Virus record (IMG/VR): IMGVR_UViG_3300029400_000005
From: a virus
DNA length: 43,044 nt
Direction: 5' to 3' (one strand)
Every line of letters begins with the position of its first letter. The stretch's first letter is position 1. Made by a program: the position numbers and the translations under genes. Below are positions 36,749 through 40,666 of the stretch, one piece after another. Below the pieces are notes generated by a model. The model made no database searches, had not been told where the DNA came from, and was given only the letters and a program-made list of their open reading frames with translations.

Positions 36749-36780
36749 GTTTTTCACCTCCTTTTGGATGAATTAAATAA

Positions 36781-36795
36781 TCTACTTTAAGTAGA
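36781..36795. promoter_or_regulatory. Distal operator, perfect palindrome TCTACTTtAAGTAGA
   Basis: Overlaps the stop codon of the cro-like gene. Confidence 0.55.
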
Positions 36796-36987
36796 TGCAC
36801 TGGCGAAAAAAATTTGGTCGATGGGAATGCCGACGACCTCACTGATTCTTTTCGCGGTGGCGACGGTAGCGTCTTCGGGCGATTGCTCGATTTTGCGGTA
36901 TGTATCGCGCGAAATTCCGAGCTTTTCTGCCATTTCACGCTGTGTGAAACCGGCGTACTGGCGGGCTTGTTTAACGGTGAATCCCAA
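36787..36987 (-). CDS. Cro-like XRE-family HTH protein
   Basis: GFTVKQARQYAGFTQREMAEKLGISRDTYRKIEQ. The likely start is TTG at 36987, 7 nt after GGAGG (the track GTG is at 36993). Confidence 0.8.
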   Translation of the reverse strand: MGFTVKQARQYAGFTQREMAEKLGISRDTYRKIEQSPEDATVATAKRISEVVGIPIDQIFFASAST

Positions 36988-37019
36988 GTTCACACCTCCT
37001 TTCGTCTGGGTTCGAGAAT

Positions 37020-37048
37020 ACTATACTCCACTTTTAGTAGAATGTCAA
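37020..37048 (-). promoter_or_regulatory. Early lytic promoter (PR-like) TTGACA-17-TATAGT
   Basis: The -35 is at 37043..37048 and the -10 at 37020..37025 on the minus strand. Confidence 0.7.
37027..37041. promoter_or_regulatory. Operator copy TCCACTTTTAGTAGA (13/15 match to the distal palindrome)
   Basis: Lies inside the spacer of the PR-like promoter. Confidence 0.55.
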
Positions 37049-37062
37049 GAACTTAAAGTAGA
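37048..37062. promoter_or_regulatory. Operator copy AGAACTTAAAGTAGA (12/15)
   Basis: Abuts the -35 of the PR-like promoter, 21 bp centre-to-centre from the previous copy. Confidence 0.45.
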
Positions 37063-37079
37063 AAATTTTAAAATAAATG

Positions 37080-37108
37080 TTGACATAGCTCTACTTTTGG
37101 TGTAATCT
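37080..37108 (+). promoter_or_regulatory. Candidate repressor promoter (PRM-like), TTGACA with a weak -10
   Basis: TTGACA at 37080..37085. The -10 is either TAATCT (17-nt spacer) or TGTAAT (15-nt spacer). Confidence 0.4.
37090..37104. promoter_or_regulatory. Operator copy TCTACTTTTGGTGTA (11/15)
   Basis: Lies inside the spacer of the PRM-like promoter, 42 bp from the previous copy. Confidence 0.4.
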
Positions 37109-37857: not shown

Positions 37858-37969
37858 GCATCTTTACAGGATGCCATCAGAAACATGATGTTTCAAAATG
37901 CTTAACAGACCCCTGGTAGTAAGCCCCCCGCCGATATGGGGAAGGCTGAATCCTGGGGTCTTATTTTTT
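37858..37969 (+). promoter_or_regulatory. Structured 5' leader: two abutting mini-hairpins plus a long terminator hairpin with U-tract
   Basis: GCATC-N7-GATGC at 37858..37874 and CATCA-N6-TGATG at 37875..37890. AGACCCCTGG...CCTGGGGTCT (37907..37961) has an inner GCC-CCCC/GGGG-GGC stem and is followed by TTATTTTTT. Confidence 0.6.
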
Positions 37970-37990
37970 ACCAAAGGAAGTGTAACACAA

Positions 37991-38671
37991 ATGGCAAAGA
38001 CAGCAATTCTGGTTGATGGCGGCTTTTACCGCAAACGTGCAGCCCACTTGTGGGGCAAAAAGACCGCCGAGGAACGTGCGAAGGAACTGAATGCTTACTG
38101 TATGGCTCACCTTCACGATAAGGACGGCAACGAGGAGCGTCAGCTGTACCGCATTTTCTATTACGATTGTGAGCCAGTAGGCCGCCGCAGCGTGTACCAC
38201 CCGCTGACAAAGAAGAATGTGGATTTGGACAAATCTGATACTTATACATGGACGCAGACCTTTTTGGAAGAATTGCGGAAGCGCAGAAAATTTGCACTCC
38301 GCCTTGGTACATTGTCCAACCAAATAGCCTACAATCTGCGCCCGGATGTGACCCGCAAGCTTCTTGCTGGCACAAAGCAGCTGGAAGAGCTGACCGAGGA
38401 CGATTTCGTTTTTGTGGCTCAGCAAAAGGGCGTGGACATGCGTGTTGGTGTTGATATTGCGTCACTCGCGTATAAGAAGCAGGTTGATCAGATCATTCTG
38501 ATTGCCGGTGACAGTGATTTTGTCCCCGCTGCCAAGCTTGCCCGACGGGAGGGCGTGGACTTTATCCTTGACCCGATGTGGGCTGATATCAAGCCTGATC
38601 TGTTTGAGCATATTGACGGCCTGAAGAGCCAGTGGCGTAAGCGCAGCGAAAAAGCTGAAGCGAAGAAGTAA
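37991..38671 (+). CDS. NYN-domain (LabA/DUF88-type PIN-like) putative ribonuclease
   Basis: 226 aa from the ATG at 37991 (AAAGGAAG RBS): MAKTAILVDGGFYRKR...QQKGVDMRVGVDIASLA...IILIAGDSDFVPAAKLARREGV. Confidence 0.75.
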   Translation: MAKTAILVDGGFYRKRAAHLWGKKTAEERAKELNAYCMAHLHDKDGNEERQLYRIFYYDCEPVGRRSVYHPLTKKNVDLDKSDTYTWTQTFLEELRKRRKFALRLGTLSNQIAYNLRPDVTRKLLAGTKQLEELTEDDFVFVAQQKGVDMRVGVDIASLAYKKQVDQIILIAGDSDFVPAAKLARREGVDFILDPMWADIKPDLFEHIDGLKSQWRKRSEKAEAKK

Positions 38672-38679
38672 GGCCAAAC

Positions 38680-38727
38680 AATGTGCAAATTTTGCACATT
38701 GCTTCCAGCCGTTGCAAAATCTGCAAC
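38680..38727. repeat. Two palindromes: AATGTGCAAAtTTTGCACATT and GTTGCAaaatcTGCAAC
   Basis: At 38680..38700 (10-bp arms) and 38711..38727. The 13-mer TGCAAAATCTGCA (38713..38725) is identical to 23462..23474. Confidence 0.8.
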
Positions 38728-38735
38728 AGCTCAAT

Positions 38736-38819
38736 AAAAACAAAAAACGCCCCCGGTGCTACCAACACCGAGAGCGTTTGCAGAGTGGCTTGCCCCAGAG
38801 GGTACAATCCAACATGAAC
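38736..38819 (-). ncRNA. Predicted small RNA (~85 nt) between the NYN gene and int
   Basis: It is bounded by a strong promoter and a strand-specific terminator. The terminator is a 13-bp stem at 38746..38778, fully paired only in the minus-strand RNA via two G-U pairs, followed by U6GU5. Confidence 0.5.
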
Positions 38820-38825
38820 ACTTGT

Positions 38826-38854
38826 ATTGTACCACCTCCGGGCAGGCTTGTCAA
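38826..38854 (-). promoter_or_regulatory. Strong minus-strand promoter TTGACA-17-(TGg)TACAAT
   Basis: The -35 is at 38849..38854 and the -10 at 38826..38831, with an extended -10 TG. Confidence 0.65.
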
Positions 38855-38884
38855 AGTGTACCCTTGTGTATGGAGGTGGATTTT

Positions 38885-40021
38885 ATGAAAAAGAGAACCA
38901 ACACGGCATTTTGGGTCGAGAAGGAAAGCCGCTGGTGCATCGCGGTGCAGAAGAACGGTACCCGCAAGCGCTTTTACAGCAGCACGCCGGGCCGCACCGG
39001 CCAGCGGGAAGCAAACGCAAAAGCGGATGCATGGCTCGACGACAGCATCCGGGACGGCAAGAAGAAGGTAGCTGCCCTCTATGCCCAGTGGGTAGAAGAA
39101 CTGAAGCTCACCTGCGGCACATCCTATGTTGAGCAGTGCAAGAAATACGGAGATTACTATATTCTGCCTGTCTGTGGGGACATCCGCATTGACGAGCTGA
39201 CCGAAGGCGATCTGCAAAAAGCCATCAATCTGTCTTTCAAAAAGCGATGCCTTAAAAAGGAGCGTCAGCGTAGGTCAAGCGACAAGCCTTTGAGCCGCAA
39301 GACCCTTATGACGATCCGCTCAACGGAGATCAGCTTTTTGAAATGGTGCCGCCGGAACAGGTACAGTACGATGTTCCCTGAGCTGTCTATCCCGAAGAAT
39401 GCCCGCATGGGGAAGAAAAAGATTTTACAGCCGACCGCTTTGAAAGTCCTGTTTGATGTGGACACCCGCCTTTACTATGGCAAGCTGGTCTTTGACGAGT
39501 ATATCTATGCCTACCGGTTTGCAGTTGCTACAGGTGTACGCCCCGGTGAACTTGTGGGGCTCTGGTATGGTGACGTCAAAGGGAACACCGTCAATCTGCG
39601 CCGCAGCATCAACCGGATGGATGAAGAAACCACCGGAAAGAATGAAAACGCTATTCGTTCATTTGACATGGGCGAGGAAGCCCATGAGGCCTACGAAGCG
39701 CAGGTAGCCTTGCTGAAGGCTTCCGATATCCCGCTGAACTATACCACCCCTTTGTTCCAGATCCCGAACCAGAGAGCTTTATTCAAGCGCTGGAAGAAGT
39801 ACCAGCGTGACAATGGCATTGAGCCTCAGGTCACGCTGTATGAGATGCGGCACACTTTCGTCAGCATTGAATCCGGCGTATTGACCGACAGCCAGCTGAA
39901 GATGCTGGTCGGTCACAGCAAGAACATGGATACTGCCGGAGTGTATCGGCACGAGCTTGATGGTCAGAGGGAAGATCTTGCTGCCGCTACCACCGCGGCA
40001 TTCAAAAAGGCACAGGCCTGA
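38885..40021 (+). CDS. int: Tyrosine recombinase / phage integrase
   Basis: ATG at 38885 with GGAGGTG upstream. Carries ...ATGVRPGELVGL...MRHTFVSI...LVGHSKNMDTAGVYRH. Confidence 0.9.
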   Translation: MKKRTNTAFWVEKESRWCIAVQKNGTRKRFYSSTPGRTGQREANAKADAWLDDSIRDGKKKVAALYAQWVEELKLTCGTSYVEQCKKYGDYYILPVCGDIRIDELTEGDLQKAINLSFKKRCLKKERQRRSSDKPLSRKTLMTIRSTEISFLKWCRRNRYSTMFPELSIPKNARMGKKKILQPTALKVLFDVDTRLYYGKLVFDEYIYAYRFAVATGVRPGELVGLWYGDVKGNTVNLRRSINRMDEETTGKNENAIRSFDMGEEAHEAYEAQVALLKASDIPLNYTTPLFQIPNQRALFKRWKKYQRDNGIEPQVTLYEMRHTFVSIESGVLTDSQLKMLVGHSKNMDTAGVYRHELDGQREDLAAATTAAFKKAQA

Positions 40022-40264: not shown

Positions 40265-40606
40265 TCAGACTGCTCTCACCAGCGCATTATACAACATTTC
40301 AATGAACTGCACCGCGCTTGGGCATCCGGTCAGCGGATAGCCTGCCAGCTGCTGCACATACTCCGGGTTTGTGAGCCATGCACCTTTAGCTGCCCGGCGT
40401 ACAGCGCTTTGAATCGCTTTTGGCTCACATCTTCTGCGGTCGGCGATAGGGGTATAGATATCTTTCTCCACGGCCTGCAGGCGGTCTTCCTGCTCACAGA
40501 CCAGCTCAAGACACTGGCACAGGATACTGTAGGCGCTCAGATTGCGTGTGATGCCCATCGGGCGCAGCAAATCATTGACCTGAGTGGACAATTCGGAAAC
40601 GATCAT
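40265..40606 (-). CDS. Spo0A C-terminal (DNA-binding) domain-like protein
   Basis: 113 aa from the ATG at 40606. MGITRNLSAYSILCQCLELV...IYTPIADRR...AIQSAVRRAAKGAW...LAGY...PSAVQFIEML aligns by eye with the B. subtilis Spo0A effector domain. Confidence 0.7.
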   Translation of the reverse strand: MIVSELSTQVNDLLRPMGITRNLSAYSILCQCLELVCEQEDRLQAVEKDIYTPIADRRRCEPKAIQSAVRRAAKGAWLTNPEYVQQLAGYPLTGCPSAVQFIEMLYNALVRAV

Positions 40607-40666
40607 AGTTGACACATCCTTTCTATGCGTCAACTCTAACCGAAAAATACTTAAAATTTACCAATT

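Follow-up and report, generated by a model that had tools for sequence, protein, structure and literature searches.

The closest described relatives of the element analyzed here appear to be the antisense-controlled transposase gene of IS200 and the countertranscript systems of plasmids. The element lies in the 150 bp before the integrase gene int of IMG/VR virus record IMGVR_UViG_3300029400_000005, of which a stretch of 43,044 nt was analyzed (the window; all coordinates are window positions), and we propose that these 150 bp form a two-strand regulatory cassette. It comprises a small RNA (sRNA) gene predicted on the minus strand and, on the plus strand, an int leader predicted to take up either of two mutually exclusive folds, states A and B, of which state B would bury the Shine-Dalgarno sequence (SD) of int. 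Its logic would combine an antisense RNA and an SD-sequestering hairpin in the 5′ untranslated region (UTR), as in IS200, with the leader refolding of plasmid countertranscript systems.

In plasmid countertranscript systems, binding of the antisense RNA selects an inhibitory fold of the leader, with attenuation as the mode of control in pT181, pIP501, and pAMbeta1 and translational control in ColE2 and IncB/IncI-alpha. The present cassette resembles them in that a constitutive antisense RNA would act against the leader part that pre-empts an inhibitory hairpin, binding of which would let that hairpin form, and in that a hairpin-loop contact is the likely first step. It differs from them in its output, which would be SD sequestration before an integrase gene and not a terminator or pseudoknot before a rep gene. 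Its state B hairpin, unlike a pT181-type terminator, has no consistent U tract. In a further difference, the −35, spacer, and −10 of the antisense promoter double as loop, anti-SD, and hairpin arm of the sense RNA. In IS10/Tn10, a strong outward promoter in the 5′ region of the recombinase gene gives rise to RNA-OUT, a stable stem-loop of about 70 nt by which transposase translation is limited; RNA-OUT and RNA-IN overlap at the SD and start codon of the latter, and pairing of a 5′ end with a loop nucleates the interaction. The strong promoter in the recombinase 5′ region and the probable 5′-end/loop nucleation recur in the cassette, whereas its sRNA does not overlap the SD. In lambda, OOP antisense RNA targets cII, and sib retroregulation acts on int from downstream of the gene via RNase III. 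Dedicated post-transcriptional control of int would be common to sib and the cassette, whereas the downstream position is particular to sib.

The IS200 study (Ellis, Trussler, and Haniford 2015, PMC4513863) describes control of tnpA by the cis-antisense RNA art200, which pairs over the ribosome-binding region and directly blocks 30S binding, and by an SD-sequestering 5′ UTR stem-loop that acts independently. The likeness lies in a recombinase 5′ UTR encoding an opposite-strand sRNA (about 90 nt in IS200), in a UTR hairpin burying the SD, in control at translation, and in a DNA-rearranging enzyme kept very low. In contrast to art200 as described there, the cassette sRNA ends about 53 nt upstream of the SD and is predicted to choose between two leader folds. 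Thus, of the traits of IS200/IS10-type control, the antisense gene in the recombinase 5′ UTR and the SD-sequestering UTR hairpin were found, and overlap with the SD or start codon was not. The cassette also differs from IS200 in having no sequence or Rfam relationship to it and in its host, a Firmicute phage.

Two other described elements share the position next to int. Staphylococcal prophages carry a conserved 40-bp sigma-H promoter upstream of their int genes (PMC2869324), which is likewise a conserved non-coding stretch directly upstream of int common to many prophages; unlike the cassette, it is a sense-strand promoter for an alternative sigma factor and not an antisense gene with a riboswitch-like leader. 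In Streptococcus pyogenes, Spy_sRNA779816, 1222613, 1774740, and 1775122, detected by RNA-seq and northern blot, adjoin prophage integrase genes and, like the sRNA predicted here, are located between int and the repressor gene in Firmicute prophages, with a promoter and terminator of their own; no mechanism or target is reported for them in the part of that article used here (PMC4829319). Full-text literature searches yielded no description of the present cassette.

The antisense gene and its association with integrases

The gene for an NYN-domain protein (37898-38671) and int (38885-40021) are 213 bp apart, and the minus strand of this gap carries the sRNA gene. The predicted parts of the sRNA gene are given below together with int; H1 is a hairpin of the int leader described in the next section.

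38849..38854, minus strand: −35 hexamer TTGACA of the sRNA promoter; in plus-sense RNA, its complement would be the apical loop of the SD-sequestering hairpin (state B)
38826..38834, minus strand: extended −10, TGgTACAAT (hexamer 38831-38826, TG 38834-38833); the 3′ half of the hexamer is also part of the 3′ arm of H1
38819, minus strand: predicted sRNA start, a G at the seventh base after the −10, placed by promoter geometry; G in 92/117 elements
38780..38819, minus strand: body of the sRNA, predicted from folding and strand asymmetry to be a long imperfect hairpin; contains an apical CCC/GGG(G) stem and the conserved motif GGGGCAAGCC
38734..38779, minus strand: sRNA intrinsic terminator, predicted from fold and covariation; a U tract comes after its stem (38779-38745)
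38885..40021, plus strand: int, tyrosine integrase of 378 aa (Pfam Phage_integrase and Phage_int_SAM_3)

The promoter (TTGACA, 17-nt spacer, TACAAT) scored 11/12 and has an extended −10. Promoter-like sites in the region numbered 5 against 4.1 expected, and a single such match is therefore not above chance; the case for the promoter rests on conservation. At least 8 of the 12 hexamer positions matched in 117 of 118 distinct homologous elements, so that the minus-strand promoter with extended −10 TG proposed in an earlier note on this DNA is well supported. The −35 was TTGACA in 105 of the 117, and the others (TTGCCA, TTGAAA, TTGCAA, etc.) kept TTG or ACA; the −10 was TATAAT, TACAAT, TATCAT, or TAAAAT.

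The terminator stem has 16 pairs, including an A-U extension and two G-U pairs, and T6GT5 follows it. On comparison of relatives, 12 of 13 stem pairs varied on both sides, and the minus-sense fold was the more stable in 55 of 56 distinct sRNAs. Three stem positions were mismatched in the plus sense in 21, 28, and 57 of 71 sequences, where C-A stands in place of the minus-sense G-U. Since the G-U pairs and the U tract exist only in the minus sense, the terminator belongs to the minus strand, as the earlier note had held from the full pairing of the stem in that sense and the U6GU5 after it.

The stretch of about 45 nt between promoter and terminator, which had been taken for unstructured, was instead predicted to form a long imperfect hairpin (−33.2 kcal/mol, z = −2.9 in the window). 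The sRNA body was more stable than its reverse complement in 56/56 distinct sRNAs (−12.9 vs −8.1 kcal/mol), an asymmetry that may partly reflect composition, because a G+U-rich strand folds better anyway. The predicted 5′ and 3′ ends of the RNA are near 38819 and 38738, respectively. A discrete minus-strand sRNA gene, proposed before with a product of about 85 nt, is thus upheld by comparison of relatives, with a revised predicted size of about 82 nt in the window and a family median of 76 nt including four U (range, 71-102). In the serine-recombinase version of the cassette (L007, L045, L092, and L107) and in a class with TATCAT as the −10 (L012, L055, and L093), the sRNAs are about 100 nt long and carry an extra hairpin between H1 and the apical stem.

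Other identities were considered for this RNA. A small protein gene of 18-21 codons (GTG or ATG at 38821/38812) was rejected, as it meets a stop codon in Faecalibacterium phage Roos and indels in phage Lugh, and no SD was found at a proper distance for this short reading frame. The whole window gave 0 matches to Rfam (release 15) at gathering thresholds, and a permissive scan of 38600-38950 gave at best FsrA, with 22.6 bits against a cut-off of 80 bits, on the plus strand at 38690-38777; a known RNA family was therefore excluded. A c4-type immunity RNA as in P1/P7 was also rejected, because there was no Rfam C4 match, the sRNA has its own promoter, and a crude test revealed no outstanding ribosome-binding-site target in the window. 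Conserved hexamers, spacing, and purine start, a hairpin and U tract with covariation, and a non-coding sequence are together what an independent gene running from a sigma-70 promoter to a terminator would have. The results support the prediction that the sRNA is a gene with its own promoter and terminator, antisense to the RNA entering int; the perfect antisense relation claimed earlier was likewise borne out by the comparison.

The earlier note had named conservation of the element next to related integrases as a check, and such conservation was found. At least 118 distinct versions of the cassette were collected from phages and prophages of Faecalibacterium, Gemmiger, and Subdoligranulum, always just upstream of an integrase gene. 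A blastn comparison with phage records placed 38736-38884 directly before int in human-gut contigs as well as in Faecalibacterium phages Aster, Lugh, and Roos. The gene on the far side differs from case to case (403-aa protein, 302-aa protein, and metallopeptidase); in the Lugh record, int (record positions 325-1482) is near a record end, and the element is found on the opposite side of int, toward the interior. A 19-mer around the −35 (GGGTACACTTTGACAAGCC), searched as an exact word, occurred in more than 105 IMG/VR contigs and in 30 genome contigs. The full element was recognized by a covariance model in 28 of these 30, from Faecalibacterium, Gemmiger, Subdoligranulum, Ruthenibacterium, and some differently labelled metagenome-assembled genomes (MAGs); matches in Vibrio and Granulosicoccus were dismissed as chance 19-mers. 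Because a search by exact word is biased, the covariance model (R1, described below) was also applied to the family of F. prausnitzii UT1 (151 species-representative genomes), where 20 genomes had matches, up to four copies each, many without the 19-mer.

A downstream SD and open reading frame (ORF) were present at 110/111 loci. Compared with Pfam, nine of ten representative ORFs were tyrosine integrases of differing N-terminal types, and one was a large serine recombinase (617 aa; Resolvase, Recombinase, and Zn_ribbon_recom domains). One integrase type (MASFKEKLD...) was paired with three different sRNA classes, which indicates that the cassette is mosaic around an invariant −35 block. As the cassette travels with integrase genes whatever the upstream gene, the element belongs with int.

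Several loci are unusual. Full cassettes were also found on MAG contigs labelled Bacteroides sp. CAG:545, Oxalobacter, Barnesiella, Lachnospiraceae, and Acetatifactor (L123, L125, L141, L121, and L122), which are more likely mis-binned phage contigs than a sign of true host range. A second, orphan cassette (L075, positions 116-255 of IMGVR_UViG_3300029543_000207) shares its contig and sRNA class with locus L067 and is without a downstream SD or integrase ORF. In L174 (G101:C8:19442-19581), from a genome with four cassette copies, the sRNA promoter has been lost by deletions at the −35 and −10 regions, and helix P1 of the leader, the anti-SD, the SD, and the int start are kept; it is a natural promoter-less variant.

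The gene upstream of the cassette was co-directional in 72/99 distinct contexts, with its stop codon at a median of 8 nt from the element. This arrangement would suit an effect of the convergent promoter itself, by which RNA polymerase collision or a sitting-duck roadblock would block read-through into int and insulate it from the lysogenic operon, leaving the sRNA as a by-product: a near-consensus promoter faces the co-directional gene in these 72 contexts, and the terminator ends antisense transcription right at the upstream stop codon. Such a roadblock leaves unexplained the better folding of the sRNA body than of its complement in all 56 sRNAs and the covarying plus-sense helices in or beside the sRNA-complementary region (P1, H1, and SD mimic:anti-SD; next section), and we regard it as an unlikely account of the cassette. 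It is compatible with an RNA switch, and both could be operating.

Alternative folds of the int leader

The predicted elements of the int leader, all on the plus strand, are as follows.

38787..38795, plus strand: 5′ strand of helix P1 (GGCUUGCCC) in state A, pairing with 38840-38848; within the sRNA-complementary region
38797..38802, plus strand: SD mimic (anti-anti-SD), AGAGGG, pairing with the anti-SD (38832-39) in state A; within the sRNA-complementary region
38801..38833, plus strand: hairpin H1, arms 38801-38812 and 38822-38833, loop 38813-38821, predicted from covariation and permuted-partner tests
38832..38842, plus strand: anti-SD CCACCUCC and GGG, the strand common to states A and B; on DNA, the spacer of the sRNA promoter
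38840..38848, plus strand: 3′ strand of P1 (GGGCAGGCU), beside the complement of the −35
38861..38879, plus strand: 3′ strand of state B, with CCC at 38861-38863, an 8-nt bulge, and the SD GGAGGUGG at 38872-38879, predicted from permuted-partner tests and three-way covariation

The 3′ arm of H1 is the complement of the discriminator and −10 of the sRNA promoter, and its loop is complementary to the sRNA 5′ end. In the minus sense, one arm of the hairpin would consist of the discriminator plus the 3′ half of the −10, and an RNA starting at +1 lacks both; H1 therefore belongs to the plus-sense int leader. Across relatives, the arms were CGCA/TGCG, CACA/TGTG, AAGC/GCTT, ACCAA/TTGGT, ACAG/CTGT, and ACGA/TCGT. 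Its inverted repeat spans the −10 and start site of the sRNA promoter, where a DNA operator for a repressor of the sRNA or int promoter could be placed. That the inverted repeats are operators and not RNA helices is nevertheless very improbable, given that the arm sequences vary freely with complementarity kept (e.g., CGCA/TGCG, AAGC/GCTT, ACCAA/TTGGT, and ACAG/CTGT), that loops of 8-17 nt leave the arm spacing unfixed, and that P1 contains U-G wobbles. The CI operators (ACTTTnAGTAG-type, 36780-37100), used as a negative control for the H1 arms, are different repeats unrelated to H1, and no enrichment of H1 arm octamers was found elsewhere in the window; H1 as a CI operator was rejected accordingly.

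The conserved sRNA motif GGGCAAGCC corresponds to the plus-strand P1 strand GGCUUGCCC (38787-95), whose partner is GGGCAGGCU (38840-48). The fourth pair of P1 was a U-G wobble in 68/71 sequences, and some classes had more U-G pairs. These wobbles would be mismatches in the minus sense, which indicates that the P1 helix exists in the plus sense only. Compensatory changes in P1 were seen in L006, L151, L159, and Roos.

The promoter spacer was always an anti-SD (CCACCUCC, CCUCUUUU, CUCCAAAA, CCACCAUC, and others). In state A, predicted to consist of P1, the SD mimic:anti-SD helix, and H1, it would pair with the SD mimic, and the mimic/anti-SD pairs of relatives included AGAAGAGG/CCUCUUUU, AGGUGG/CCACCU, GAUGG/CCAUC, AAGAUGG/CCAUCUU, and AAAUGG/CCAUUU. 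In state B, the anti-SD and the following GGG are complementary to CCC...GGAGG, which includes the int SD, and the −35 complement falls in the loop. For nearly every member, the state B duplex had an energy between −11 and −18 kcal/mol, and the value for the window was −16.5 kcal/mol. In the cassettes with a serine recombinase, nothing separates CCC from the SD, and the state B stem is perfect (−18 kcal/mol). As both states use the same anti-SD and GGG, the two folds are mutually exclusive. The U tract after the SD was not conserved, being U-rich in many members and A-rich in others (e.g., GGAGGTGAAAACAATG); state B was therefore rejected as a transcription terminator, and its output is better read as SD occlusion.

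The position of these strands relative to the sRNA is uneven. The interval 38738-38819 takes in the P1 5′ strand, SD mimic, and H1 5′ arm, and every state B strand falls beyond it. The sRNA is accordingly complementary to these three elements and to the H1 loop, and it has no complementarity to any strand of state B. Two exclusive folds sharing one strand, with antisense complementarity to the pre-emptor strand only, are what would be expected of a target of countertranscript refolding.

To evaluate these helices, covariation and pairing energies were compared with controls. MAFFT alignments (A2 and A3) were structurally inconsistent in the H1 and SD-mimic region, with register shifts between classes; therefore, the covariance model R1 was built and alignments fitted to it were used, namely A5 with 71 distinct rows and A8 with 25 more divergent rows from the genome search. 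For state A and the terminator, 82.1% of cells paired in A5 against 71.1% in column shuffles and 33-50% when partners were slid by 1-3 columns, and the covariation score was 0.301 against 0.125, with 0/500 shuffles as high. The corresponding values in A8 were 82.1% against 62.7% (slid controls, 39-48%) and 0.488 against 0.177, again with 0/500 shuffles as high. In A5, H1 was paired in 87.6% of cells, and 4 of its 6 pairs varied on both sides.

No single consensus register was found in A5 (columns 57-67) for SD mimic:anti-SD or anti-SD:SD. As these SD-related helices shift register between classes, they were tested by duplex energy with own versus permuted partners. In A5, permuted partners did as well in 0/2000 permutations each for state B, P1, and H1 and in 18/2000 for SD mimic:anti-SD; in A8, the value was 0/5000 for all four. 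These shuffle and permutation tests ignore relatedness and the fit to the model, and independence is overstated for such related, mosaic sequences. An alignment-free swap test on crude segments discriminated H1 modestly (own −6.75 vs swapped −4.63 kcal/mol).

The most telling support comes from the strand shared by the two predicted folds, where covariation is three-way. In L006, GGG is changed to GGA, and its P1 partner and its state B partner both follow (C to U in each); P1 there is AGCGUGUCC/GGACACGCU, Watson-Crick throughout. In L159, P1 is AGCCUAUAC/GUAUAGGCU, and GUA pairs with UAC in both folds. In L102, the anti-SD CCAUC is matched by GAUGG in the SD region and in the SD mimic. These changes argue for alternative pairing of one strand in the leader RNA.

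With one fold or the other enforced (P1 or the GGG:CCC stem), state A had a mean of −35.8 kcal/mol and state B of −33.3 kcal/mol, and A was more stable in 45/61 leaders. The SD core was more open in state A (unpaired, 0.37) than in state B (0.04). When the sRNA-complementary part was masked, the state B fold was obtained in 10/10 representatives.

The near iso-energetic folds in the absence of a ligand would also fit a switch set by some other factor, such as Int, Xis, a repressor, or a host protein, ribosomes finishing the upstream gene, or temperature, with the sRNA acting separately in trans, e.g., on early phage genes or host mRNAs. A CCUCU-type anti-SD-like stretch in the sRNA speaks for trans action, which the earlier note had raised. 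In a crude duplex-energy scan of 94 candidate translation starts of the window, no target stood above shuffled sRNAs: the best value was −40.3 kcal/mol against a shuffled mean of −34.9 (standard deviation, 3.4), and 10% of shuffles were as good. Moreover, the sRNA complementarity covers exactly the strand that separates state A from state B, which would otherwise be an odd coincidence. We therefore consider a switch independent of the sRNA improbable, and the scan gave the trans-acting sRNA no backing.

The sign of the effect could also be reversed. A perfect duplex of about 80 bp would be a substrate for RNase III, as established for cis-antisense pairs, and cutting of the sRNA-leader duplex would detach int from the upstream mRNA and give an int mRNA with a 5′ end near the H1 3′ arm, the processed form being translated or stabilised. 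An activator could be useful, as state B is already the more stable in 14/61 leaders. However, once the sRNA-complementary part was masked, each of the 10 representatives folded into state B and its SD was hidden, so that RNase III processing alone should not open the SD; activation by the sRNA is thus quite unlikely.

Proposed action of the sRNA

Taken together, the folds suggest that the sRNA probably switches the int leader from state A to the SD-burying state B and thereby blocks Int translation. On the minus strand, the near-consensus sigma-70 promoter would give a stable RNA of about 80 nt with a 5′ hairpin and a terminator. In state A (ON), P1, SD mimic:anti-SD, and H1 would tie up the anti-SD and leave the int SD more accessible; in state B (OFF), the anti-SD and GGG (38832-42) would pair with CCC...GGAGGUGG (38861-79), and the SD would be buried. 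First contact would probably be made between the sRNA 5′ end and the H1 loop, a loop-to-5′-end contact like that of IS10. Pairing of the sRNA would take away the competitor of the anti-SD, drive the leader into state B, and leave Int untranslated.

We infer that both RNAs are made and that the int transcript starts upstream, with polymerases reading through into the leader from the direction of cI and NYN; a source on the repressor side fits the co-directional upstream gene of most contexts and the closeness of its stop codon. The negative sign and the timing are likewise proposed: Int would be made after infection before the sRNA builds up and be silenced in the established lysogen. Beside the RNA, the strong convergent promoter may itself contribute through head-on transcriptional interference. 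Insulation of int, or an effect on int or NYN mRNA stability, had been suggested in the earlier note; the part that ties the element to int agrees with its distribution, whereas the covarying two-state leader points to a translational mechanism.

Several points weigh against this switch, in addition to the composition of the sRNA strand and the relatedness of the sequences mentioned above. A search by eye revealed no convincing conserved plus-strand int promoter inside the cassette. A plus-strand intrinsic terminator after the NYN stop codon, of which the earlier note had seen none, is indeed lacking at that place in the window; relatives L043 and L096 do have a strong one (AGAGGGCTGGTGCATGCACCAGCCCTTATTTTTT) after the upstream gene, some 35-70 nt ahead of the cassette, so that int is not simply read through from upstream there. 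The predicted sRNA start (38819) and the SD (38872-38879) are separated by 52-53 nt, and as the sRNA overlaps neither the SD nor the start codon, the proposed effect over this distance depends on the folding model. Thermodynamically, state B is already favoured by the free leader in some representatives and by 14/61 leaders of the enforced-fold set. In some classes, SD mimic:anti-SD pairing is weak (−2 to −5 kcal/mol), and this helix is poorly aligned under one register. For the sRNA itself, the crude-segment swap test gave no partner-specific covariation in the outer stem (own −8.07 vs swapped −8.51 kcal/mol), which leaves this stem backed by strand asymmetry only.

A wider role is conceivable but doubtful, namely that the cassette is an RNA-based integration-immunity (incompatibility) system in which the variable sRNA 5′ half (H1 loop, SD mimic, and apical hairpin) defines specificity classes. 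The abundant sRNA of a resident prophage would then silence Int translation of an incoming or co-resident phage of the same class, whatever the integrase type, and selection to escape or impose cross-silencing would account for the way in which classes are shuffled, mosaic-like, around the invariant −35 block. The cassette would also be a timer that confines Int synthesis to the first minutes of infection, ahead of sRNA accumulation.

The cassette suggests a concrete RNA mechanism by which temperate phages of the dominant gut Firmicutes could hold integrase silent in lysogens and still have it at hand for infection and induction. It occurs in hundreds of Faecalibacterium-group phages and is portable between tyrosine and serine integrases. 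Its two-strand coding is compact, as the −35, spacer, and −10 of a promoter would serve as loop, anti-SD, and hairpin arm of the mRNA switch of the other strand, and this double use would explain the extreme conservation of a 24-bp block across mosaic phages. The sRNA and the cis-regulatory leader together are a candidate new Rfam family and could serve as an orthogonal riboregulator scaffold for anaerobe genetics.

Neighbouring sequences of the window

Between the NYN stop codon and the sRNA terminator, two palindromes were observed, CAATGTGCAAATTTTGCACATTG (38679-38701, with perfect 11-bp arms) and GTTGCAAAATCTGCAAC (38711-38727). No T tract follows either of them, and both are missing in relatives in which the upstream gene ends right at the cassette; they may bind a protein or stabilise mRNA 3′ ends. 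No tRNA or tmRNA was found by a search of the window, and the conserved block was therefore rejected as an attP site or tRNA fragment.

In the cI-cro intergenic region (36780-37100), the repeated ACTTTnAGTAG-type operators lie between divergent consensus promoters, one on the minus strand at 37048-37020 and the other a plus promoter before cI. Downstream of int, the match of a minus-strand ORF (40265-40633) to Spo0A was confined to the C-terminal DNA-binding domain (Pfam Spo0A_C, E = 1.5e-18).

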